DNA of 32,000 nt from Candidatus Thorarchaeota archaeon. GTDB taxonomy: Archaea > Asgardarchaeota > Thorarchaeia > Thorarchaeales > Thorarchaeaceae. The position numbers were made by a program, and so were the translations under genes. The stretch lies in the NCBI GenBank assembly GCA_003345555.1, contig PRDJ01000075.1, forward strand, positions 1 through 32,000. Direction: 5' to 3'. Under the pieces are notes generated by a model. It saw only the letters and a list, made by a program, of their open reading frames with translations, was not told the origin of the DNA and did not search any database. This document shows, piece by piece, positions 11,919 to 32,000 of this stretch (positions are counted from its first letter, which is position 1; the number at the start of each line of letters is the position of its first letter).

Positions 11919-12535
11919 CGGCTCTTCTTAGGAGAACCTAGGCGCGTCTTGTGAAGTCTGAACAGTTCTGAGAAGAGCTCTTGGGCCAAATCCAAGTGGA
12001 GGCTATTGATTTCGCTCTCCACATGCTCAAAAAACCGTTCAAGGTTCTGCGGGGGAAAACCACGATTCTCCATACTCACCGCATGCGCCAGCATATCGAG
12101 CCGGTCAGAGGCAACGGCGATTTTGGCCTCAAGAGTGTCTGGCCCCTCGAATTCCTCCAAAGCCTTGCTTAAGGACTCACCCAGAGCTCCCAGCGGGGTC
12201 AGTATCTGTTTTGCCGCAACTCGCTCTGTCTCTTTCTTCGCTGATTTCATGGCAATTCCCCCCAGTTCAACGGCTCTGTAGGGAATATCCGAGACAATAG
12301 ACTCGGGCAAGTCATGCAGAATTGCCATCGTCAACAGCCGCTCCAAGTCGACACTCTTCCCTTCGAATCTGAGTTGAAGCGCCAAAAGAAGGGCAATGAC
12401 AGAGGTTCCCCAGCAATGAGATGCAATCTTCTCACATCCTGAGTAGTCCTCTCCAGCAAGTATCCAACCCGTGCGCGGAAGCCGTTTGAGAGACTCCGAT
12501 TTCAGACAGAATTCAATAATGTCATCTGCGCTCAT
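11915..12535 (-). CDS. HD-domain phosphohydrolase (YfbR/HDDC2-like 5'-deoxynucleotidase family)
   Basis: 'LKRLPRTGW', 'EKIASHCW', 'ILHDLPESIVSDIP', 'ASDRLDML'. Confidence 0.9.
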   Translation of the reverse strand: MSADDIIEFCLKSESLKRLPRTGWILAGEDYSGCEKIASHCWGTSVIALLLALQLRFEGKSVDLERLLTMAILHDLPESIVSDIPYRAVELGGIAMKSAKKETERVAAKQILTPLGALGESLSKALEEFEGPDTLEAKIAVASDRLDMLAHAVSMENRGFPPQNLERFFEHVESEINSLHLDLAQELFSELFRLHKTRLGSPKKSR

Positions 12536-12601
12536 ATGAAGACACCTCGGTGCTTCGTGACTTCAGAATGCTCTTGCTCGGTACCATGGCGGTCCTGCCG
12601 C

Positions 12602-13693
12602 TCATGGAGAAACTACGATGGTACCTGCAACGATTGCGTCCTTGTAGCTATGAATGATGTTCATAACGGAAGCTGGAATGTAGGTGGAACTGTAAGCAAA
12701 CGTCGTGACGTTGGCACCACCATTAGCAAGATTGTACTGGTAGTGATAACCAGAGGGGAATGTGTCCCAGAGTGTTGCATTGATTATTGTGTAGAACACC
12801 CAGTCTGTGCGAGATACAACACTCGTGACAATCCAGCTCGGCGCGACTGGAATGAGAGGGTCAGCACATCCGTAGTAGTCCTGATCGCCTTCGGCAGCTA
12901 TCACAAGCGGCATCCTATCTTCGGAATAGAGGATTGTGCTGTTGGCGAATAGCATTCCTTCCCGCACGCCGACGATGCTGGCCCGGACTGGAGCGAACAA
13001 TACGGAGACCCCATCGTTGACAAACAAATGAAACGTGCTATTGCTCGCGGCGCTGGAGTCGTTGTAGCTCCCAATGAATTCAGTCGGCAAAAGCGTTACA
13101 TTCAGCGCATAAGTCGAATTGGCCGCCACTACACCCTGCACGAAACCATTGACCAGACTGATCACGTCCGGGTCATCATCCATGGAAGCAAGTATCCCAA
13201 CTTTGCTTGTGTAGTTCTCTTGAGTCGAAAGTAGCGCGGCAAGAGCACCTGCTAAGAAAGCAGCCTGTTCGGATGCATATGATCCGGATGCCACGTTTAA
13301 CAAATCAACGAACCCCCCGATCATCCCGAATTTCTGGTTTGGGTAAGCAACTGCTGCATTGTGCACTGCCGTTGTTAGCTTTTGTCCAGCCGCCAGAATG
13401 AGCTCATAATGGCCAGAGGATGCGAGGCTTTCCATCAGAGTCTCGGCCTCAGCTGATGTCTTTGGGTATGGATTTGCTATGTAGTACTGAACCGTGAAAT
13501 TCGCAGAGACTTCATTCATACCTATGCCGACTTGGTCGGCCATGCTGAGGTCATCGAAGCCCGGGTCCAATACCACAACTGCAATCTCAGGAGGCCTGTA
13601 TTGATTCGAGACAAATAGAAACGTACCCACAGAACCGAAGATGACAATGACAATCACTATCGAGGATATCAATGAGGTCGTTGAACTCGGCAC
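12602..13693 (-). CDS. BMP (Bmp/PnrA-like) substrate-binding protein with N-terminal membrane anchor
   Basis: N-terminal TM segment; 'GFDDLS', 'YPNQKF..IG', 'EQAAFLAGALAA', 'F..G...AN', 'TSVV.R.D'; many N-glycosylation sequons. Confidence 0.85.
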   Translation of the reverse strand: MPSSTTSLISSIVIVIVIFGSVGTFLFVSNQYRPPEIAVVVLDPGFDDLSMADQVGIGMNEVSANFTVQYYIANPYPKTSAEAETLMESLASSGHYELILAAGQKLTTAVHNAAVAYPNQKFGMIGGFVDLLNVASGSYASEQAAFLAGALAALLSTQENYTSKVGILASMDDDPDVISLVNGFVQGVVAANSTYALNVTLLPTEFIGSYNDSSAASNSTFHLFVNDGVSVLFAPVRASIVGVREGMLFANSTILYSEDRMPLVIAAEGDQDYYGCADPLIPVAPSWIVTSVVSRTDWVFYTIINATLWDTFPSGYHYQYNLANGGANVTTFAYSSTYIPASVMNIIHSYKDAIVAGTIVVSP

Positions 13694-13739
13694 CGTACTT
13701 CCTCCAGCATCGAACGGGAGCGAAGCGCCTAGGGCTTGA

Positions 13740-13878
13740 TTTAAACTTGTTGTTCAAAGAGTCTCAAGTTGTGCGGCGCAAGTCAAATATGAATGACGTT
13801 CGCCTGTATGTTTTCTCTGAAACAGCTGCCACCGAACTCCCTTAGGTCATGCCGCAGCGCTTGACCACAGCTTATATA
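13740..13878. promoter_or_regulatory. Divergent promoter region with TATA-like boxes
   Basis: TTTAAA at 13740-13745, with a minus-strand GGAGG at 13701-13705 before the BMP gene. TTATATA at 13872-13878, about 42 nt before the ATG at 13920. Confidence 0.45.
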
Positions 13879-13919
13879 GCGGCAGTGAGCTACACGCTTG
13901 AAAGCAGAGGCGCAAGATT

Positions 13920-14645
13920 ATGGCTGGAGAAACGCTTGGCAAGGTCGCAGACTTGCTTGGAGACGCCTTGAAGGTACACCGCTCTGTCAAGAATGTTATA
14001 CTTTGTACAAAGGAAGGTGTGGTTGTCGCGGCGGTGTCCAGGAAGAACGAGAGTATTGACCCCAAAGTCCTCTCCACTGTATCAGCTGCACTTGTATGGG
14101 CGGGAACGAATGTGCTCGGGCGAGTAGGAAAAGCAAAGCCAACCTACCTAATGCATTCCACACAAAGCGAGACGATACTGACGGTATTGCAGCCGCACTA
14201 TCAGCTGGTAATTGTACTAGTAAGAGCTGAACAGGCCGCGATGGAGCCCGGATCGTTGGTGCCGAAGTTCCAATCCATTGCCACGCGTATTGAGCTGCTT
14301 ATGGGTTCAAGTGCAGCGCCCCCGAAGGAAACACTTCTTGGAAACATTGTAAAGACTTTCCCAGAGATAACTCAGGCCATGCTTCTGACAATTGAGGGCT
14401 TGCCTTTGGGTTCGGTCGGGCTAGAAGACCATATAGAGATTGCCGCACTTGTGAGCTCGATATTCGCAAACGGGCTCACATACTCCAATCGCACAGAGAC
14501 CATCCTGATAAACTCTGAGCAGGCGGACCTTTTGGTTACTCGAGTCGACGAAGCGCGTCTGCTTGCAGTCGTGTGCAGGGGAATGCAACCGGATTCGCTT
14601 TCGAAGAAGATTATAGCATTTATCCAAGAGAATGTCGCTGGCTAG
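13920..14645 (+). CDS. Tandem (two-domain) roadblock/LC7 protein
   Basis: Two repeats of the roadblock pattern: 'VILCTKEGVVVAA...VLSTVSAAL' and 'AMLLTIEGLPLGS...IAALVSSIF...LLAVV'. Confidence 0.8.
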   Translation: MAGETLGKVADLLGDALKVHRSVKNVILCTKEGVVVAAVSRKNESIDPKVLSTVSAALVWAGTNVLGRVGKAKPTYLMHSTQSETILTVLQPHYQLVIVLVRAEQAAMEPGSLVPKFQSIATRIELLMGSSAAPPKETLLGNIVKTFPEITQAMLLTIEGLPLGSVGLEDHIEIAALVSSIFANGLTYSNRTETILINSEQADLLVTRVDEARLLAVVCRGMQPDSLSKKIIAFIQENVAG

Positions 14646-15343
14646 TGAACCTTCGTCGGTTCTTCAATTTCGGGAGGGCCTGTTTCTTCATCACTGATCA
14701 TATCTAGTTGCCACTCCCTGAGATTGATCTTTATGTAACAGTCCTTTCCTCTTTCAGGACAGTCAATCCTGATAGTCACGTGGTCTTGCGTCTTCTCTTT
14801 GATTTCGGGATTCAGACATCCATTCTCCAGCTTCTCCATGAGCCACATGACGTAGGCTTCTGTTATTGAATTCAGACTTCCGTCCAGCAGCGCCTGGCCG
14901 AGATGCGCGAGGAAATGCCGCTTCTTCCGGCCCTGCTTTTCCACACGGACCAGCCCGACTTCCTCCATGCGTGAGATGTGCCACCTCACGGTGTCATGAT
15001 GAACACCTAGGGTCTCGGCCATCTGTTCCTGATAGCACCCCGGGTTGTTTACAATGTACGAAAACACCCTTCTAGCGGTCTCACTGCGCATTGTCAGGTA
15101 GGCCATTTCTGCTTCCTGAGACCGTAACATACGAGGATAGTAGAGCCTCTTGCCGGCGAACTTGATTGACTTCACAAGCCCTTCGCGCTCAAGGATTCTC
15201 AGATGCCACGTGAGGGTCCCAAGAGGAGATTCGAGCATCTCCACAAGTTCGAGAAGATACGTACCAGGATTCTCACAGAGGACTTGGTAGAGGTCGCGCC
15301 TAAACGGATGAAGAAGCAGCGTCAAGCGTTTTTGCTTTCCCAT
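14642..15343 (-). CDS. Double winged-helix transcriptional regulator (archaeal ArsR/MarR-like)
   Basis: Two wHTH units: 'NPG.YL.EL...L....GTL.WHL..LE..GLV' and 'NPG.YQ.QMA..LG....TV.WHI..ME..GLV'. Confidence 0.85.
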   Translation of the reverse strand: MGKQKRLTLLLHPFRRDLYQVLCENPGTYLLELVEMLESPLGTLTWHLRILEREGLVKSIKFAGKRLYYPRMLRSQEAEMAYLTMRSETARRVFSYIVNNPGCYQEQMAETLGVHHDTVRWHISRMEEVGLVRVEKQGRKKRHFLAHLGQALLDGSLNSITEAYVMWLMEKLENGCLNPEIKEKTQDHVTIRIDCPERGKDCYIKINLREWQLDMISDEETGPPEIEEPTKVH

Positions 15344-15503
15344 CAGCCAGTCCTCTTGCGTCGGCGTCTATTCGGATGGGCTGAAAGGTCATAAAAGGTC
15401 TTCGACAAGTTGGGTGATGCTTGACATTGGATGTAAGCTTCGCAACCTTTTTGGGCGTCCAGTAACAGCCCCACATTAGAATCTGGGCTCAGAAGGGTCT
15501 GAC

Positions 15504-17336
15504 TTGTGCGGCATAACTGGTATTGTGAGCCTCAATCGCGAGAACATTGGTGAGGTTCTTGTCAAGTGTGGACGCAAACTGACCTACCGGGGGTACGATT
15601 CCGTTGGTCTTGCAGCTGTTCACGAAGGCAAGGTCGACCTTAGGAAAGATGTCGGGACAGTGGATGCTGTAGACAAGTTACTTGGATTGTCCAAGATGAA
15701 GGGAGACAGAGGAATTGTACAACTCAGATGGGCTACATACGGTCCGCCAACAAAGCTGAATGCCCAACCACATTTCGCATGTGATGATTCAATCTATGGG
15801 GCTCACAACGGCAATATCCACAATTACGTCGAGTATCGAAGGGAGCTTGTAGAAACAGGTCATATCGTGCGTTCTGAGAATGATGGAGAGCTTTGTGTTC
15901 ACGCGGTAGATAAGTACTACGAACAGACAGGCGACATGCTTGAAGCCGTGAGGCTTTCTACACGCGATTTGAAAGGTGCCTTTTCATTTGCTGTTGGCAG
16001 GGCAGACAGCAGGGAGATCTATGCCGTCAAGATGGGCTCTTCGCTTGTTGCTGGTGTGGGTAACGAAGAAACGATCGCATCAAGTGACTTGCCTTCAATA
16101 CTTCCAGTTACTAACAACATCATCTACCTTGCCGACGGAGAAATGCTGGCGCTCTCTCCAGAGAAGGTCGAGGTGTACAGAATCGAAGATGGGAAGCGAC
16201 TCACTCGGAAGCCCGAACCCACAACCATCGACGTGCATGCCGCAGAGAAGGGCGGCTTTCCGCACTTCATGCTCAAAGAGATTAACGAACAGCCGAAGGT
16301 TGCTCAAGACGTAATGGGAGTTCTTCAGGGAGCCAAGTCCGATGAATGGCTGAATATCATAGAAGAATCAAAGAATCTGTACCTCGTGGCTTGTGGGTCG
16401 TCCTACAATGCGGGAGTGGTAGGGGCCTATTACTTCAATCGACTGGCAGGCATACCTCTTGTTCCCTCCATTGGTGGCCAGTTCGAGTCCATGTACGGCA
16501 GGGCCTTGGATGAAGACAGCCTGTCCATCTTGGTTTCCCAAAGCGGAGAGACCAAGGATATACTCAACGTCCTGAATCTCGTGAAGAGTCAAGGCAGAGG
16601 GAAAACACTGGGCATTGTCAACGTCATAGGGAGTACCCTAATGTTCAATGCCGACGCGTACATACCTATGGCCTGCGGGTACGAAGTGAGCGTCCCAGCC
16701 ACAAAGACGTACTTCTCTCAGACAGTCATCTTTGCCTATCTGGCAGCGATGCTCGGCGAGAGAAATGGCACCTTGGACAGACAAGAAGCCAAGTCCATTG
16801 TTCGGATGTTAAGTCAGGACCTTCCAACACAGGCCCAAGCAACAATCGACCACACTGGAATCCTTGCAAAGAATCTCGCAAAGACCTTGATCGGTGTAAA
16901 GGATCTTTACTGTTTAGGCTACGGCATGACCGATGGAGTAGCCCGTGAGGGAGCACTCAAAATAAAGGAGATATGTTACAATCACTGTGAAGGAATGTAC
17001 AGTTCCGAGTTCAAGCACGGCCCACTAAGTATCGTCACAAGAGACTACCCTGTGATATTTGTAACGACACCCGAAGACAGCTGGATGGTAATCAACCACA
17101 TCAACGAGGTCAAGTGCAGGTTTGGTCGTGCGATAATCGTGGGTGAGCGGGAGAGCAGCCTTGAGCCGTACGTCTCAAACGAGGTTGACTACTTGGAGGT
17201 CCCGAAAGGGAACATAGTACTCAATCCGATGATAGATGTCATCCCACTTCAGCTTCTTAGCTATTTCCTGTCAGTGGACCTAGGCATAGATCCGGATTTG
17301 CCGCGGAATCTATCCAAGACACTCACAGTTGACTGA
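15504..17336 (+). CDS. glmS: Glutamine--fructose-6-phosphate aminotransferase (isomerizing)
   Basis: TTG start giving 'MCGI' (Ntn Cys1); 'YRGYDSVG', 'HNG', 'SQSGETKD', 'VPATKTY', 'EGALKIKE', 'EFKHGP', 'PRNLSKTLTVD'. Confidence 0.95.
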   Translation: MCGITGIVSLNRENIGEVLVKCGRKLTYRGYDSVGLAAVHEGKVDLRKDVGTVDAVDKLLGLSKMKGDRGIVQLRWATYGPPTKLNAQPHFACDDSIYGAHNGNIHNYVEYRRELVETGHIVRSENDGELCVHAVDKYYEQTGDMLEAVRLSTRDLKGAFSFAVGRADSREIYAVKMGSSLVAGVGNEETIASSDLPSILPVTNNIIYLADGEMLALSPEKVEVYRIEDGKRLTRKPEPTTIDVHAAEKGGFPHFMLKEINEQPKVAQDVMGVLQGAKSDEWLNIIEESKNLYLVACGSSYNAGVVGAYYFNRLAGIPLVPSIGGQFESMYGRALDEDSLSILVSQSGETKDILNVLNLVKSQGRGKTLGIVNVIGSTLMFNADAYIPMACGYEVSVPATKTYFSQTVIFAYLAAMLGERNGTLDRQEAKSIVRMLSQDLPTQAQATIDHTGILAKNLAKTLIGVKDLYCLGYGMTDGVAREGALKIKEICYNHCEGMYSSEFKHGPLSIVTRDYPVIFVTTPEDSWMVINHINEVKCRFGRAIIVGERESSLEPYVSNEVDYLEVPKGNIVLNPMIDVIPLQLLSYFLSVDLGIDPDLPRNLSKTLTVD

Positions 17337-27087: not shown

Positions 27088-28632
27088 TCAATCCTGAGCA
27101 GCGAGTACCTGAGTATCGGTAGTGAGAGTCACTGGTTTGGCCTGGATGTGTGTTGCTCGAACGACATTCTCGAAGTACGATGATTTCATGAGCGTTAATG
27201 TAGTCGGGCCGAGTGCGCCTGACTCCCTGACTATACGGAATTCCTCGCTGTCCGACATCAATGCCTCTTCAAGAGCTGTGAGAAACTCGACTGCATCGAT
27301 ATTGTTGTTACCCAACATGAGAGCTAGCGTGTAATGCGGTATTCCGTTTTCAACCAAACCGACCATACAGTAGTCTGACACCTGAACGCCAGTCTTCAAG
27401 CAGGCTGCGGCCATGGCATTGGATACATGCTTGTCGGATAGCTTTTCGCCCGACATGTTGACAATCTTGCCTTTTCTACTGATTGATCGTATTGTGTAAG
27501 GATTGGTGTTTGTGAAGGTCAACATATCACCGAGTCGATACCTATAGCACCCTGTGTTATTCGTCAGAACCATCTCATACCTGAATCCCTTCCTGACCTC
27601 CGACAAGGGCACTACAGTGGGATTGAGAACTTCTACTTCACTCTCGGGGATGAACTCAAGGTAATTAAGACTCGGAAGCAGCTGAATTCCCGGTTCTTCG
27701 AAGAGCTGACCTCCATAGAAGCCCTCAGACCCTCCGTACATATCAAGAATCCTCGCAGTCGGCAGTGTCTTGCTGATCCATTCTCTGTAGGGGTCACAAT
27801 CTATTCCAGAAGTGGTAAGCAGCCGCAGATTAGGCCATAGGCCTTGTACGTCCATCATGCCTTCGTCGTTCACGAGCCGTCTGATTCTCTGTTCGTGCCG
27901 GGTTCCCTTCAAAGAGTCAAGCAACCATGGACCGTATTGAGTCTGCATCCTGCGGACAAGCGCTAGCAACAGTGTGCTTATGCCCAGCAAGCCCGTCACG
28001 TTGGTTGTTGCAAGAAGATTGGCATAACGTTTCATCTTCTCATCAACGTCAGTTATGTTGAATACATCCTCTCCGGGTTTCATCAGTCTCTTGAGAAGCG
28101 GATTGAAGCGTCTAATCATTGCACCTGTAGCATATCCTACGGGGATTCCATTAATGTGATCGATAACGGCTGGCGCGCCCAGTGTTACGAGGGTACCGTC
28201 GAATATCTTGGCATTGTCTGAATCAGCATTGACAAATGCCAACCACACAAGCATCGTTCCTTTCGAAGTGTCCTCAGCTCCACTCTCCGTCAAGGGAATG
28301 TACTTCGGCTTTCCTGTCGTTCCTGAAGTCTTCAGATACCATATTACCGGGTCGGCAGTCAACACTTGTCCGTTCGGATTGTCGTACGTCATCTTCAGGT
28401 ACGGTTCCATGCCATGGTAGTCGAAGAGCGGGACATTGGACGAATACTCTTCCGAGTTCCTTATGGATTCAAAGTCGTATCTCTTACCAAAAACAGTACC
28501 TTTGTGACGTGCGAGCACGGACATGAGCTTCTCTTCTGTAAGCTCAATGGGGTTGCTCAGAATATGCTCTACTTCCTTGGCCTTTCTTCTGGCCATCAAT
28601 GAAACAAGCCGTCTCATGATTGACATCTGCAT
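27088..28632 (-). CDS. GH3 family acyl-acid amido synthetase (ANL adenylating superfamily)
   Basis: 'T.FG.RYDF', 'VP..DY', motif I 'TSGTTGKPKYIP', motif II 'YGGSEGF', 'YLEFIP', motif III 'YRYRLGD', 'GEKL'. Confidence 0.92.
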   Translation of the reverse strand: MQMSIMRRLVSLMARRKAKEVEHILSNPIELTEEKLMSVLARHKGTVFGKRYDFESIRNSEEYSSNVPLFDYHGMEPYLKMTYDNPNGQVLTADPVIWYLKTSGTTGKPKYIPLTESGAEDTSKGTMLVWLAFVNADSDNAKIFDGTLVTLGAPAVIDHINGIPVGYATGAMIRRFNPLLKRLMKPGEDVFNITDVDEKMKRYANLLATTNVTGLLGISTLLLALVRRMQTQYGPWLLDSLKGTRHEQRIRRLVNDEGMMDVQGLWPNLRLLTTSGIDCDPYREWISKTLPTARILDMYGGSEGFYGGQLFEEPGIQLLPSLNYLEFIPESEVEVLNPTVVPLSEVRKGFRYEMVLTNNTGCYRYRLGDMLTFTNTNPYTIRSISRKGKIVNMSGEKLSDKHVSNAMAAACLKTGVQVSDYCMVGLVENGIPHYTLALMLGNNNIDAVEFLTALEEALMSDSEEFRIVRESGALGPTTLTLMKSSYFENVVRATHIQAKPVTLTTDTQVLAAQD

Positions 28633-29241
28633 GCATAGCCTCCTTGTGCTTGGAACCGACGGCCCAAGCGATGCTTCGCTATGCGTTACTCTCTGATTGA
28701 TAGCCCCAACGAATCATCACTCCAAGACGGAAGCGTTCATCTTACCGCGTTTCGAGCAACCATAATCCTCTGATTCGTATAATTTCATCCAGAAGTGTCG
28801 TTTCTTGCGTCATCGGTAATATAGCTGGCCCTTGCAGAATGATAATACGGAATTTCCTGATTCGCAAGTATGCATTTGCCATGATAGTTCGTGGGAAGTG
28901 ATCAGTCAGGACAAGATGCCGGAGAGGAAGACTCAGGCAGACACGCTTCTGACACCTTCAGAGGTCCTGCAGGAGCACACGGGCAGAGAACCTAGCAAGA
29001 AGGCATACGCTTGACATCACGGTAGTATCGAACCATATTGCAGGACCTAGACTTTTCCGTAAGGATATATCTGGCGGGCCAATTTTGCTGTCCCATTTTA
29101 TGACCAGAGCATCCATAGTTTCCCGTTTTGTATCGCAAGGTTAGATGTTGAGTATTTCTGTTCTTACGGCTTTATGGGTTCCCGTGGTTCTTCATGCCAA
29201 CACCCAAGAGTTCTGTGACCTAGCATGACAACGATGCAAAG

Positions 29242-29991
29242 ATGATCGCCAAGATAGAGGCGCAGCTGTTGTCGGCAAGCGCTGTTCGTAGAAATAACAT
29301 CGGCACTGTGGATGTCACTGGCCCACTCCAAGTGATATTCAACAACGGTGACCGCTGTATCGTCAATGCAAAGCTCCGATATCATGGCCCCGAGAGCAGC
29401 TCATGGTTAGCACTTGTGGTGGGCCTAAGGAGCCGGATCCTCTCTCCGTTCAGCAGGTTTGAAAACGGAAGAGACCGATACATTCCCTGCGACATCCCCG
29501 GCTTGGTTCCCGCTCTAGCGCTCACTCTGGCGCATCAAGATTGTGGACTCGCAGTGAGCGCCATAGCGCACGACGCATTCACTCACCTAGTCCTTGTATT
29601 TGAAGGAGATGTAGCTGCCAAGGGCGGCAATCTCAGATCACTTGCCGCTTCGGTATGGACTTTCATGAAAAGGTGGACCGACTGGACCGATGTTCTGCTG
29701 GCCACCGCTTCGCACGACCCATCGGCGGCTAAATGGAACTTAGACTGGCGAGAATTCCTTGCAGGCGAATCCGGATTTGTAACCATGCCTTGGTTCAGAC
29801 CCATGAACTACCTCGACCGAGCCCTTAGTCTGGAGAGAATTGTTGCGGCCTCCAAATCGCTCTTGGCTTCTGTTCTGAACCAAGCTCAGATGGAGGATCC
29901 CCGGATTCGGACACTCACTTCCTGGCTAGACCAGCTGGCACCCCTTTCAGAGGTCGTCGGTGGAATGGAAGCAGCGGAGGCTGAAGTTTAG
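29242..29991 (+). CDS. Hypothetical protein (249 aa), first gene of the RadA-paralog operon
   Basis: Clean ORF with an ATG start; the next ATG follows 1 nt after its stop. No family recognised. Confidence 0.8.
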   Translation: MIAKIEAQLLSASAVRRNNIGTVDVTGPLQVIFNNGDRCIVNAKLRYHGPESSSWLALVVGLRSRILSPFSRFENGRDRYIPCDIPGLVPALALTLAHQDCGLAVSAIAHDAFTHLVLVFEGDVAAKGGNLRSLAASVWTFMKRWTDWTDVLLATASHDPSAAKWNLDWREFLAGESGFVTMPWFRPMNYLDRALSLERIVAASKSLLASVLNQAQMEDPRIRTLTSWLDQLAPLSEVVGGMEAAEAEV

Positions 29992-29992
29992 T

Positions 29993-30460
29993 ATGATGTG
30001 TAACGATCTATGTCGAAGCTTTTCGAGGTTGACTGTGGAAATCATGGGACCTTCGTGGATAGCCGGTGCTGTGACAGGCATTAGAGCTTCCACAAGGCGA
30101 GAATCGGATTGGATTTGGGACCGATTCATCGAGGAACTCTATGACGCCGCCGAAAGGCTAGGAGACATTCAACCAGCTGAGCCAGCAACCTCACTGGCAG
30201 ATGAATATGGCTTCGCGGGTTCAGCATACGACACTCTCGGGGGTTATGTCAGCACAGCAGGTGAAGTCCGTTCTCAGGGATTGTACTTCAGTGTCTCTCC
30301 GGAACAGTTGGAGAACGTCATAAGACTGCTTCCGGATTTCACAGTGCTCAGGGCAAAGGGCGGCCTCATTGTACCACGTTACGAACTGGGTTCTTTCTTG
30401 AATCTCGTACCTGTGAACGGACCATTGTTGGATCAGCTGACGGAGGGGAGCTTGCAGTGA
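29993..30460 (+). CDS. Hypothetical protein (about 155 aa)
   Basis: ATG at 29993, directly after the upstream stop (the ORF track starts at 29960); GTGA overlap with the RadA-like gene. Confidence 0.75.
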   Translation: MMCNDLCRSFSRLTVEIMGPSWIAGAVTGIRASTRRESDWIWDRFIEELYDAAERLGDIQPAEPATSLADEYGFAGSAYDTLGGYVSTAGEVRSQGLYFSVSPEQLENVIRLLPDFTVLRAKGGLIVPRYELGSFLNLVPVNGPLLDQLTEGSLQ

Positions 30461-31533
30461 CAGAGCTTGAGGCAGTGACAGGTGTCGGACCCGCAGTGGC
30501 GAAGAAACTCCGAGAGGTGTTTGTGACGACTGCGGAGCTTCTCGCTGTTCAGAACCATGTGGACCTGCAGAACAGGACCAAACTTGGAGAAGGCACCGCT
30601 CTAAAAATCATACGGAATGCTAGACAACTTGTAGGGCTTTGTGGTTTCAAGTCGGGTCTCGAAATGGAGCAAGAGATGGCAGGTAAGCCCCGCCTTAGCA
30701 CTGGCATAGATAGAGCCAATGCAGCACTCCTCGGTGGTATAGAGACAGGCTCGGTAGTAGAATTCTACGGTGCTGCACGAAGCGGAAAGACGCAATGGTG
30801 TGGTCAGCTAGCTGTCATGGTTCAGCTGCCTCTGGAAAAGGGAGGGCTTGAAGGTCGAGTGCTCTGGCTGGATACAGAAAATTCCTTCAAACCATGGATC
30901 ATTAGAGCGGACGCAGTCCGGTTTGGATTGGACCCGGACGTTGCCCTCGGGAACATTGGCCACGCTCACATCGTAATGACTGAACAGATGACACAGCTCT
31001 TCGAGAACATACCGCAACTCTGTGCGGAGGAAGACTACAAGCTCGTGGTTATTGATTCATTGACCGGGCTTTTCAGGGCCGAATACACAGGACTTGAGCT
31101 CCTAAGAGTAAGACAGCAGGAGATGAATGGCCTTCTCAACCTGATGAGACGTACTGCGACCGCAACTGGAACAATCTTCTGCTACACCAATCAGGTCATG
31201 TCTAGCATGGGGACATTCAAGTCCAATCCCAACTCTCCAGTCGGAGGACACATCATCTCACACGCCTCCGATTATCGATTCTATGTAAAGAAGAAGCTAA
31301 AGGATGTCAGGGGCCTTCAGCTCCAGGACAACGCAGGTATACCTGAGTTTGACATTGATGTAGTGATCGGATGGGGCGGCTTCTACACAGATGCGAAAAC
31401 GAAGAAGAAAGTCGAGGCGGATGTTCTGGAGTACTTCAGAAAGACCGGTTGGAATCCCGAGATGACAGAGGGTCATGAGGAGCCTGGAGAAACGAAGGGA
31501 GAAACCGAGGAGATTGTGGAGGAAAGCGATTAG
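30457..31533 (+). CDS. radA: RadA/Rad51-family recombinase, divergent full-length paralog
   Basis: N-terminal HhH 'VTGVGPAVAKKL', polymerisation motif 'FKSG', Walker A 'GAARSGKT', 'DTENSF', Walker B 'VVIDSL', 'RQQ', 'TNQV', 'VGGHIISH'. The symbol refers to the family; orthology to the main RadA is doubtful. Confidence 0.85.
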   Translation: MTELEAVTGVGPAVAKKLREVFVTTAELLAVQNHVDLQNRTKLGEGTALKIIRNARQLVGLCGFKSGLEMEQEMAGKPRLSTGIDRANAALLGGIETGSVVEFYGAARSGKTQWCGQLAVMVQLPLEKGGLEGRVLWLDTENSFKPWIIRADAVRFGLDPDVALGNIGHAHIVMTEQMTQLFENIPQLCAEEDYKLVVIDSLTGLFRAEYTGLELLRVRQQEMNGLLNLMRRTATATGTIFCYTNQVMSSMGTFKSNPNSPVGGHIISHASDYRFYVKKKLKDVRGLQLQDNAGIPEFDIDVVIGWGGFYTDAKTKKKVEADVLEYFRKTGWNPEMTEGHEEPGETKGETEEIVEESD

Positions 31534-31979
31534 TGCTCACCAAAGAGAGAGGCATGTTCCGCATCTACGAGTGTCCCCGTTGCAGGAACATCGGTTTCGC
31601 ACAAGTCGAAAGCGAGGAGTGCGTTTCGCGATGTAGCTTGTGCCAAGGTCCCATCGCACATGCCCCCGCGATGCAATATGCTGCAACCATTCAGGAAGCA
31701 GAATCCTGTGTCAGAGAGGCCGTGGTCGGAACTAAACTGAAACCAAAATCATCAGGAAGTTCGAGGACCATAGGGCTGAAGAAACGGGTATTGAACATAG
31801 TTGAAGCTCTGGTTGATATGAACAAGGGACGCCCCGTCAGCCTCAAGGACATTCTTCGCGAATGCACAGACGCAGGTATTGACAAGGACAGGGCAATGGA
31901 TTTCATCGAGGCTCTTCTCGGCGAGGGGATTCTCTCAGGCGACGACCTCGGTATGAGACCTTCTGGGAGGCCTTCGTGA
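31533..31979 (+). CDS. Zn-ribbon plus winged-helix protein (DUF1922/DUF5817-like architecture)
   Basis: CPRC...CSLC in the N-terminus; C-terminal 'VLNIVEAL...VSLKDILREC..AGI...RA..FIEALLGEGIL'. 1-nt overlap with the RadA stop. Confidence 0.75.
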   Translation: MLTKERGMFRIYECPRCRNIGFAQVESEECVSRCSLCQGPIAHAPAMQYAATIQEAESCVREAVVGTKLKPKSSGSSRTIGLKKRVLNIVEALVDMNKGRPVSLKDILRECTDAGIDKDRAMDFIEALLGEGILSGDDLGMRPSGRPS

Positions 31980-32000
31980 CGTGCCCGATACTGAGGTTAC
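31976..32000 (+). CDS. Possible start of a fifth operon gene, 3'-truncated
   Basis: GGGAGG at 31965-31970, a GTGA start/stop overlap at 31976-31979, and an open frame to the window edge (MTCPILRL...). Confidence 0.4.

Follow-up and report, generated by a model that had tools for sequence, protein, structure and literature searches.

A conserved Thorarchaeota operon headed by a second, divergent RadA and a candidate zinc-ribbon partner

Why does a thorarchaeal genome that encodes a canonical RadA also carry a second, divergent RadA within a string of tightly packed genes, and which process could such a recombinase serve? This question is raised by the distal part of a 32,000-nt stretch of Candidatus Thorarchaeota DNA (i.e. 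positions 1 to 32,000 of contig PRDJ01000075.1, assembly GCA_003345555.1; hereafter the window). A sequence-only reading of the window had proposed a dedicated recombination cassette of four to five genes comprising two orphans, a RadA paralog, a zinc-ribbon/winged-helix protein and a fifth gene.

Gene organisation and orphan products

Four co-directional, tightly coupled genes lie at positions 29242-32000, where a fifth also begins (Table 1). The three junctions originally read between the first four genes were confirmed in the sequence, with a gap of 1 nt between A and B, a 4-nt GTGA overlap between B and RadA2 and a 1-nt overlap (TAGTG) between RadA2 and D. The fifth gene had been assigned a second GTGA overlap; however, the GTG at 31976 does not share the reading frame of gene E, which starts instead at GTG 31981 after a gap of 1 nt from the D stop codon. 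Gene starts are preceded by GGAGG-like motifs located 9-16 nt upstream. The intergenic region is presumed to be the candidate promoter region of the operon. Among the public runs listed, no RNA dataset contained the stretch. It was carried by contigs assembled from wetland metagenome DNA, and the assembly itself may derive from some of these metagenomes.

Table 1. Features at the head of the operon and immediately upstream (contig numbering)
Feature	Coordinates	Strand	Length	Basis or remark
GH3 gene	27088-28632	minus		diverges from gene A
Intergenic region	28633-29241			between divergent GH3 gene and gene A; position alone
Gene A	29242-29991	+	249 aa	ORF
Gene B	29993-30460	+	155 aa	ORF; ATG start at 29993 backed by ortholog alignment
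RadA2	30457-31533	+	358 aa	ORF, Pfam, alignment, trees
Gene D	31533-31979	+	148 aa	ORF; Cys pattern, PDB profiles, complex prediction
Gene E	31981-32607 (31981-32000 inside the window)	+	208 aa	ORF and ortholog alignment
XPD-like helicase gene (sixth)	from 32580			truncated by contig end at 33099

The order A-B-RadA2-D-E-XPD is kept across the family, in 17 loci from about 16 genera, and the overlapping junctions are kept with it. As protein identities range from 25 to 90%, preservation of the same order and the same tight junctions is far beyond chance. The RadA2-D-E-XPD portion is also retained in the sister family.

Genes A, B and E match no known family or fold. The products of A and B, unrecognised in the initial reading, gave zero matches in Pfam, NCBIfam, PHROGs, PADLOC or PDB profiles, and fold searches (Foldseek included) likewise placed none of the orphans in a known family. 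Orthologs of gene A were found in 19 of 24 genomes of the same family and in none of 16 outside it, with just 42 representatives among 1.84 billion clusters. An AF2 model of A (pLDDT 87.7, pTM 0.86) consists of an alpha/beta sandwich with long helices and had no convincing fold match, the best hits being to the YbjN family with Foldseek (E 0.011) and at Z 5.5 with VIA-align (rmsd 3.6, 100 aligned). Gene E is order-restricted, its profile being found in 54 of 85 family genomes, the single sister-family genome (1/1) and none of ~314 other Asgard genomes. The AF2 model of E (pLDDT 80.9) gave no fold match (VIA-align best Z 4.8, rmsd 8.9, 117 aligned). Searches of Atlas folds with A and E reached a TM of at most 0.54, too weak to name a fold, and resemblances to type III secretion chaperones, YbjN or ACT-like alpha/beta folds were also too weak to be accepted. 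A relationship between A and E as mutual paralogs was rejected (hhalign probability 0.3%).

Gene B is family-restricted, with no relatives detectable beyond the family. Its ESM Atlas model is poor (pLDDT 0.39) and the associated fold matches are meaningless. The gene was not found by tblastn in three loci (i.e. G004, G007 and G011), in the last of which an unassigned ORF occupies the slot; in G009 this slot contains a duplicate of RadA2. Derivation of B as a RadA remnant, to which this duplicate had pointed, was not supported (hhalign of B against RadA2, probability 0.2%).

RadA2 and its predicted partner

The third product proved to be a full-length and divergent RadA/Rad51 homolog, as had been proposed, with matches to PF08423 (Rad51; E 2.4e-54) and HHH_5 (E 1.7e-5). 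The protein comprises a HhH domain, a RecA core, a conserved C-terminal extension (GWGGFY...) and an acidic tail. A separate canonical RadA of 313 aa is encoded on another contig of the genome (G000:C6) and shares 37% identity with RadA2. Scores for RadA2 fell below the cut-offs of both RadA equivalog models (i.e. 254 versus 259 for NF003301 and 231 versus 361 for TIGR02236), whereas the canonical protein scored 474 and 463 bits, respectively. The score for the radB model was also below its cut-off (58 versus 172), and the TIGR02237 (RadB) alignment covers solely residues 90-277. RadB and aRadC are not known to carry an N-terminal HhH domain. RadA2 resembles these proteins in being an extra RecA-fold protein beside the canonical RadA, to which the operon adds two RadB-like proteins, but differs from RadB in retaining the N-terminal HhH domain and filament motifs that lie outside the NCBIfam RadB models.

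In an alignment of 19 sequences, the Walker A residues (G110-K111-T112), the Walker B aspartate (D200) and the catalytic glutamate (E141) of RadA2 were invariant. The L2 loop is kept; in L1 the first arginine ('GRG') is replaced and the second (RQQ) never varies. RadA2 has FKSG as its polymerisation motif, and its orthologs have FxxG or FxxA. Inclusion of the operon RadB-like proteins as an outgroup produced long-branch artefacts, and the RadA tree was rebuilt without them. In this tree, sampled without eukaryotic Rad51 and Dmc1, RadA2 formed a separate clade with paralogs from two other Asgard families (f7 and f21) with an SH-aLRT support of 100, and the canonical RadA of Thorarchaeota was set apart from this clade by branches with a support of 99. 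The f7 and f21 paralogs in the clade are those linked to genes resembling g11, a membrane-anchored HerA/VirB4-like gene of the operon. RadA2 shares with RAD51 and RadA the HhH domain, the RecA core and the hydrophobic pocket for oligomerisation, which is conserved. It differs from them in forming a paralog lineage of its own, marked by an FxxG/A motif, an altered L1 loop and a C-terminal extension. A literature search found no description of a second RadA in Thorarchaeota, nor of an Asgard cluster of RadA, XPD and Hel308.

Gene D encodes a four-Cys zinc ribbon, possibly DUF1922-like, followed by a C-terminal winged helix that is probably of the MCM type, in agreement with the ribbon and MCM-like fold suggested by the sequence-only reading. 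Four cysteines (i.e. C14, C17, C34 and C37) were invariant in an ortholog alignment. Matches of the winged helix to PDB profiles were weak but repeated (MCM WH 2m45, E 0.008; Mcm7, 0.087; SsoMCM, 0.18), and the ribbon matched MTH1184 (1gh9) at E 0.16. No Pfam match was obtained at E up to 1, including to PF21100/PF21120 and PF09082. In the ESM Atlas, one structural neighbour of D was a cluster of MCM C-terminal winged helices (TM 0.73 by target, 0.48 by query) and the language-model neighbours were DUF1922-labelled clusters (scores 0.91-0.96).

The proposal that the recombinase is a dedicated one, served by private partners, gained support from controlled complex prediction. RadA2 and D gave ipSAE values of 0.66, 0.62 and 0.61 across runs as compared to a best control of 0.00, the controls being two unrelated partners that each scored 0.00. 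Of 80 solved complexes, 58 reached the ipSAE mark applied, as did 2 of 110 mismatched pairs. Contacts agreed between runs to 68% or more, and the pLDDT of the partner was at least 77. The zinc ribbon is the part of D seated on RadA2 in these models. In RAD51, the equivalent pocket is occupied by an FxxA phenylalanine, which is supplied either by the adjacent protomer or by the BRC repeats of BRCA2. The predicted interface residues of RadA2 (L136, A170, L181 and L188) align with M158, A192, L203 and M210 of RAD51, which are four of the five residues forming the pocket for Phe1524 of BRC4 (PMC4855620). The contacting residues of D (16-21 and 35-38) lie within its most conserved loops. Unlike a BRC repeat, D is a zinc ribbon joined to a winged helix, its alignment contains no FxxA motif and its binding is a prediction. 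D is thus predicted to be the direct partner of RadA2, with its ribbon at the FxxA-type pocket, and may act like a BRC repeat although it does not belong to that family. Because the FxxA pocket is a familiar hot spot, a structure predictor could be drawn to it by memorised examples, although the two unrelated partners scored 0.00. The pairing of the two genes recurs on another contig, where a stand-alone RadA2-like gene overlaps a D-like gene, and D-like zinc-ribbon proteins occur within RadA2/g11 clusters of two other families.

The complete operon and its occurrence in Asgard archaea

The genes of the proposed four- to five-gene cassette were upheld but its extent was not, as reading downstream revealed that they form the head of a ~15.5 kb operon of 15 genes, including membrane proteins, with the remaining genes located on contig C37 of the same genome. 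The likely biology consequently shifts from a soluble recombinase with loaders towards DNA handling at the membrane. The operon is translationally coupled. Genes A, B, RadA2, D, E and the XPD-like helicase gene (genes 1-6) are followed by genes for a small membrane protein, a small protein and the HerA/VirB4-like g11 (genes 7-9), a Hel308-like helicase, a 2-TM protein and a RadB-like ATPase (genes 10-12), and a multi-TM protein, a second RadB-like ATPase and a FEN1-like nuclease (genes 13-15). Every operon enzyme misses the NCBIfam equivalog cut-offs, while canonical RadA, FEN1 and XPD are encoded elsewhere in the genome, indicating that the operon enzymes are extra copies.

Transmembrane segments were conserved in four operon proteins across four genera, and the membrane proteins g09, g14 and g16 matched no Pfam or NCBIfam family. 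In language-model features g11 resembled HerA, VirB4 and CedB, with CedB clusters among its nearest neighbours, and its best PDB profile was a HerA-type NTPase (8j4u, E 0.0013), with matches to three more HerA entries. The Walker A lysine is missing in nine of nine g11 orthologs (GGxxxER), and DNA pumping cannot therefore be assumed; as judged from this motif, g11 is probably not an ATPase.

The operon is a single-copy locus with a constant chromosomal context in 15 of the 16 genera of the family, its flanks are syntenic between genera and the RadA2 tree mostly tracks genera; these patterns point to vertical inheritance in Thorarchaeota. In the sister family, a gene for a giant surface protein is located inside the cluster. 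The g11-like genes of seven other families adjoin Hel308-like, RadA-like or FEN-like genes. These clusters of other Asgard families are looser and shorter, suggesting that the thorarchaeal operon may combine modules with separate roles.

Candidate function and alternative explanations

Considering its composition, the operon appears, with moderate confidence, to encode a membrane-associated machine for DNA processing and recombination with the RadA2 module at its head. RadA2, with its retained ATP-binding and filament motifs, would be active in strand exchange and dedicated to this machine. Docking of the D zinc ribbon in the hydrophobic pocket, as predicted in the models with controls, would keep RadA2 capped and non-polymerised, and the winged helix of D could deliver RadA2 to DNA or to another subunit in the fashion of a BRC-like mediator. 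A, B and E may be lineage-specific accessory subunits. The presence of four membrane proteins, one of which is probably built on an inactivated ring of the DNA-translocase/secretion type, makes processing of DNA at the cell membrane the most likely activity of the assembly. The favoured form of this activity would be handling of DNA entering or leaving the cell followed by recombination. Membrane anchoring could instead signify localisation or regulation and not transport.

Several known systems offer partial parallels. In bacterial natural competence (i.e. ComEC, ComFA, DprA and RecA), a recombinase that has its own mediator works together with membrane components and helicase-like ATPases. 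The logic of the operon may be analogous in function alone, homology to competence proteins not having been detected. Archaeal DNA-import systems are represented by Ced in Sulfolobales and Ted in Thermoproteales, and the Ted loci adjoin recombination genes (HerA, Rad50), tying DNA transport to homologous recombination; Asgard archaea go unmentioned in that study (PMC9905601). The operon resembles Ced and Ted in being archaeal and in combining membrane proteins with a VirB4/HerA-like protein. It differs in that the g11 HerA-like core lacks the Walker A lysine, whereas CedB and TedB have an intact P-loop. No CedA/VirB6-like channel or CedA1/VirB2-like pilin was identified among the operon proteins with Pfam and NCBIfam. 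Conversely, the Ced and Ted loci contain no paralogs of RadA, XPD, Hel308 or FEN1. The HerA-NurA-Mre11-Rad50 end-resection operon similarly combines a HerA-family ring with a nuclease and feeds the RadA recombinase. By contrast, the thorarchaeal HerA-like protein is membrane-anchored and probably no ATPase, the nuclease is FEN1-like and no NurA, Mre11 or Rad50 domains were found in the operon proteins scanned with Pfam and NCBIfam.

As judged from the literature searched, no DNA-handling machine has been described that combines a second RadA, a predicted zinc-ribbon partner, spare repair enzymes and membrane proteins. The locus exhibits a second full-length RadA lineage that is common to several Asgard families and whose genes are linked to those for a membrane-anchored HerA/VirB4-like protein, for spare helicases and for a flap nuclease. 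It also supplies a concrete predicted contact between the oligomerisation pocket of a recombinase and a small zinc-ribbon protein. If this contact is true, archaea would control a recombinase through the FxxA pocket using an unrelated protein scaffold; if DNA is handled at the membrane, DNA exchange in Asgard archaea would become accessible to experiments. A minimum of eight operon proteins fall outside all known families and represent new protein biology to be found. A wider proposal is unlikely and is put forward as speculation, namely that recombinases of the RadA2 lineage, together with the zinc-ribbon partner and the HerA-like membrane protein, constitute an Asgard-wide apparatus for uptake or exchange of chromosomal DNA between cells with dedicated Rad51-type recombination. 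Were this so, prokaryotic membrane-coupled genetic exchange would be present in the closest archaeal relatives of eukaryotes, and BRC-like control of recombinases would be older than BRCA2.

The alternative with the most in its favour is a specialised cytoplasmic pathway for repair or replication restart (e.g. at collapsed forks, crosslinks or double-strand breaks) with its own recombinase, helicases and flap nuclease, in which the membrane proteins merely anchor or regulate and DNA never crosses the membrane. Every recognisable operon enzyme is a paralog of a repair or recombination protein, archaeal end resection pairs HerA with nucleases (PMC9905601), active pumping by g11 is doubtful in the absence of the P-loop lysine and a channel or pilin homolog was not detected in the operon. 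Four conserved membrane proteins interleaved in a translationally coupled operon would, however, be unusual for such a pathway. The giant surface-protein gene within the sister-family cluster also speaks against this explanation, which is considered possible but doubtful.

Defence against viruses or plasmids, with the helicases, nuclease and RecA-like ATPases sensing and destroying invading DNA, is very improbable. HerA-, DinG/XPD- and Ski2-type helicases are known from defence systems, the best PDB match of g11 is a HerA-type NTPase and the operon helicases gave generic PADLOC matches to type IV DinG and HamB models, with a marginal LmuB stretch in D. PADLOC 2.0, however, matched no system and no known effector in the operon, and A, B, E and the remaining orphans had no PADLOC match. 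Additionally, the single copy, constant context and genus-following RadA2 tree described above indicate vertical descent, unlike patchy defence islands. The lowest probability of all is assigned to a domesticated or resident mobile element, in which the genes would serve an integrated plasmid or virus for replication, recombination or transfer. Recombinases, helicases, flap nucleases and VirB4/HerA-like proteins are frequent on conjugative elements and viruses, and RadA2 matches UvsX-like PHROGs. This match, however, is generic RecA-fold similarity, and PHROGs gave no match to A, B, D or E. A Pfam scan of operon ORFs and flanking ORFs revealed no integrase, the GC content equals that of the surroundings and the flanks are syntenic at a constant chromosomal position.

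The membrane-associated machine favoured here includes two helicases that are each in two pieces in one genome of the same genus, G003. Splitting of the XPD-like and Hel308-like helicases was rejected as a feature of the system. In eight other genomes, including that of the sister family, these helicases are single ORFs of ~650 and 730 aa, respectively. Across the XPD break, G003 and a contig assembled from the metagenome of the window are unequal in length by a single base (222 and 221 letters, respectively), indicating that the split arose from a frameshift or an assembly error found in G003 alone.

The operon at the end of the window

The co-directional genes at the end of the window are the head of a much larger operon. 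Genome G000, a Candidatus Thorarchaeota assembly of 2.28 Mb in 82 contigs, is 93% complete, and its contig C75 extends beyond the window to 33099, allowing the fifth gene to be resolved. The sequence-only reading had described a 1-nt gap between A and B, a GTGA overlap of B with RadA2 and a 1-nt overlap of RadA2 with D, all of which match the sequence. Its start for the fifth gene at a further GTGA was not borne out: the GTG at that site is out of frame, and ortholog alignment confirmed a start 1 nt past the stop codon of D. GGAGG-like motifs lie upstream of the starts of A, B, RadA2 and D.

Gene order, whose conservation the same reading had proposed to test, was examined in 17 fetched loci from ~16 genera, and A-B-RadA2-D-E-XPD was kept in these loci. 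B and RadA2 overlap by 4 nt in 10 of 13 loci and RadA2 and D by 4 nt or 1 nt in 13 of 17. In related genomes, co-directional and mostly overlapping genes run on for ~15.5 kb. In G000 the operon is divided between contigs C75 and C37, with the middle (i.e. the rest of the XPD-like gene to the Hel308-like gene) unassembled. A 36.8-kb metagenome contig (public run X1, probably the source sample) reaches ~3.7 kb past the end of C75 and is collinear with the same-genus genome G003.

Genes of the operon in consensus order from G022 (98% complete genome), with G000 coordinates (window numbering unless a contig is named); lengths marked ~ belong to the consensus
Position	Gene	Coordinates	Strand	Length (aa)	Remarks
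	GH3-family acyl-amido synthetase	27088-28632	-		divergent, upstream of operon
1	A	29242-29991	+	249	ORF
2	B	29993-30460	+	155	ORF
3	RadA2	30457-31533	+	358	ORF; RadA homolog
4	D	31533-31979	+	148	ORF
5	E	from 31981	+	208	ORF; GTG start
6	XPD-like helicase	from 32580		~652	truncated by end of C75
7	g09			~198	N-terminal TM
8	g10			~105
9	g11			~784	N-terminal TM
10	Hel308-like helicase			~736
11	g14			~490-600	two TM
12	g15				RadB-like
13	g16			~305-331	3-5 TM
14	g17				RadB-like
15	FEN1-like nuclease
11-15	g14 to FEN1-like	C37, ~53104-58226	-		operon tail

All recognisable enzymes of the operon fall below the NCBIfam equivalog cut-offs. As canonical RadA, FEN1 and XPD are encoded elsewhere in G000, the operon represents a parallel, divergent enzyme set.

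The GH3 gene is also the upstream neighbour in G003, G022, G012 and G006, lies farther upstream in G004 and has the opposite orientation in the single sister-family genome, G025. In G003 the XPD-like and Hel308-like genes are each in two ORFs (L018:6369-8325 and L018:11516-13730), as against single ORFs in eight other genomes; between G003 and a metagenome contig of the window's population, the length across the XPD break differs by a single base, and the split helicases are probably due to a frameshift or assembly error. In G025 (contig C1; L044/L045), the genes for the 2-TM protein and the RadB-like proteins are separated, within the cluster, by a g20-like membrane-protein gene and by an ORF of 2599 aa that matches the Ig-like surface proteins. 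Homologous surface-protein genes come after the operon in the window's own family, with synteny kept in eight genomes.

The RadA2 lineage and its reach among Asgard archaea

A separate canonical radA was found on contig C6 of G000, in agreement with the earlier view of RadA2 as a paralog. Its product (313 aa) is 37% identical to RadA2 and exceeds both NCBIfam RadA equivalog cut-offs (474 versus 259 and 463 versus 361), whereas RadA2 is under both (254 versus 259 and 231 versus 361). An alignment of 18 RadA2 orthologs with canonical RadA showed an intact HhH domain, Walker A GKT, Walker B, the catalytic Glu, a conserved L2 loop and the second L1 arginine. The first L1 arginine is gone, the polymerisation motif is FxxG/A, and the C-terminus carries a conserved extension (GWGGFY...) with a variable, acidic tail after it.

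In maximum-likelihood trees RadA2 formed a single long-stemmed clade (SH-aLRT 100), with the Thorarchaeota canonical RadA placed apart, among canonical Asgard RadAs. RadA paralogs from three genomes (two from family f7, one from family f21), each adjoining a g11-like gene, fell within the Thorarchaeota RadA2 clade (24 rows, SH-aLRT 100), a phylogenetic placement indicating that RadA2 is an old Asgard paralog lineage and not a recent duplicate.

Proteins resembling g11 were detected in 153 of 400 Asgard genomes, including families f21 (6/6), f7 (3/5), f23 (2/2) and f24 (2/2); matches in f9 were weak (72/135 genomes). At the tblastn and Pfam level used for neighbourhoods outside Thorarchaeota, loci from seven other families had, close to the g11-like gene, one or more of a RadA paralog, a FEN-like nuclease and a Hel308-2-like helicase (31-42% identical in the matched region). 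The f7 clusters contain D-like zinc-ribbon proteins, one collinear with D (hhalign probability 52%, E 1.5e-4, 115 columns) and another recognised by its CxxC pairs and length only; f24 has a further zinc-ribbon ORF matching the D profile. The spread of g11-like genes, their enzyme-gene neighbours and these D-like proteins argue for an Asgard-wide core of RadA2, a D-like protein, a g11-like protein, Hel308-2 and a FEN-like nuclease. Thorarchaeota have elaborated it into the strict 15-gene operon that includes A, B and E.

Many other Asgard genomes encode two to four full-length RadA homologs each (e.g. four matches each in G028, G032 and G039, and three each in G033 and G038). Outside Thorarchaeota these extra homologs spread over several separate clades, and Asgard RadA paralog diversity seems larger than usually assumed. 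Additional RadA2-like genes occur on small contigs away from the operon, at L079:1693-3230 (minus strand; G023:C144), followed by an overlapping D-like gene, and at L080:224-1315. Both cluster with RadA2 of other genera and may derive from a co-binned relative or constitute a true second pair. On contig C26 of G000 (12380-15687), the genome's canonical XPD gene has a RadB-like gene ~1.5 kb away, whose core is 26% identical to that of RadA2, and the two may form another small repair cluster.

Predicted partners and likely role

D has four invariant cysteines. Its profile weakly matches the MTH1184 zinc ribbon and MCM C-terminal winged helices, and searches by language-model features and by structure place it next to DUF1922-labelled proteins and MCM WH domains; by sequence profile the family was found in Thorarchaeota only. 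D was chosen for complex prediction on two grounds: the sister family retains it but has no detectable A or B, and a separate locus of two genes pairs it again with a RadA2-like gene. The suggestion that the paralog has dedicated partners gained support from this model: three RadA2-D runs gave ipSAE values of 0.66, 0.62 and 0.61, as compared to 0.00 for the best control. Among solved complexes 58 of 80 attain this ipSAE mark, as do 2 of 110 mismatched pairs, counts that are only approximate here as custom alignments were used. Contact agreement between runs was at least 68% and partner pLDDT at least 77.

In the predicted interface, D residues 16-21, 35-38 and 60-65 face RadA2 residues 136 and 165-192. 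An ungapped HMMER alignment of this region (RadA2 n = human RAD51 n+22) equates RadA2 L136, A170, L181 and L188 with RAD51 M158, A192, L203 and M210. As the BRC4 Phe1524 pocket on RAD51 consists of Met158, Ile160, Ala192, Leu203 and Met210 (PMC4855620), the zinc knuckles of D are predicted to occupy the RadA2 pocket into which the next protomer normally inserts its FxxA phenylalanine. This modelled position suggests that D could be a BRC-like cap or mediator on an unrelated scaffold; unlike BRC repeats, D has no FxxA motif. The FxxA pocket is a known hot spot that the structure model may favour. New here are the predicted interface at this pocket and the extension of the RadA2 lineage and its g11 linkage to other Asgard families; a literature search found no published description of the system.

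No Pfam match was obtained for g11. In language-model space all its nearest neighbours are HerA, DUF87, VirB4, TraG or CedB clusters (scores 0.91-0.92), and the best named neighbour families share 181-182 features. A profile of nine orthologs matched PDB HerA-type chains (8j4u, E 0.0013; 8xau, 0.026; 8ziq, 0.043; 8yho, 0.095) from Walker B to the arginine-finger region. The P-loop reads GGxxxER, its lysine missing in 9/9 orthologs, and the C-terminal segment is winged-helix-like. We read g11 as a membrane-anchored, probably non-catalytic HerA/VirB4-type protein, with a ring form assumed by analogy with that family.

From the conservation, composition, motif states and membrane segments, which were directly seen, and the one controlled contact model, we infer a membrane-associated assembly that would process DNA and then recombine it with a private recombinase. 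The favoured reading is that this DNA enters or leaves the cell, the analogy being with bacterial competence and with Ced and Ted DNA import, whose loci adjoin recombination genes (PMC9905601). Membership of Ced or Ted is itself not supported, since the ATPase P-loop of g11, in contrast to those systems, is dead for want of its lysine and the operon proteins revealed no homolog of a channel or pilin. The main rival reading is a pathway for repair or fork restart that works in the cytoplasm and has the membrane only as a tether. A defence system or mobile element fits poorly with a vertical, syntenic and near-universal distribution and with the lack of specific PADLOC and PHROGs matches.

The orphan proteins A, B and E

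The sequence-only reading had recognised no family for A and B, and searches of these two and of E against Pfam, NCBIfam, PHROGs, PADLOC and PDB profiles indeed gave no match. Only 42 representatives of the A family were present among 1.84 billion protein clusters. A was found in 19 of 24 genomes of the window's family and 0 of 16 sampled outside it, and E in 54 of 85 family genomes, the one sister-family genome and none of ~314 other Asgard genomes. AlphaFold models of A and E were confident (pLDDT 87.7 and 80.9), and no convincing structural neighbour was found for either; the best VIA matches had Z 5.5, rmsd 3.6 and 100 aligned residues for A and Z 4.8, rmsd 8.9 and 117 aligned for E.

A second, solitary A-like gene (34% identity) lies at L029:2941-3690 (G017:C12), with no other operon gene near. 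In G009 the B slot between A and RadA2 is filled by a 370-aa degenerate RadA2 duplicate (L033:11000-12112, minus strand), which retains the HhH domain, GKT and the RadA2-type GYGGFY C-terminus and has a decayed L2 loop.
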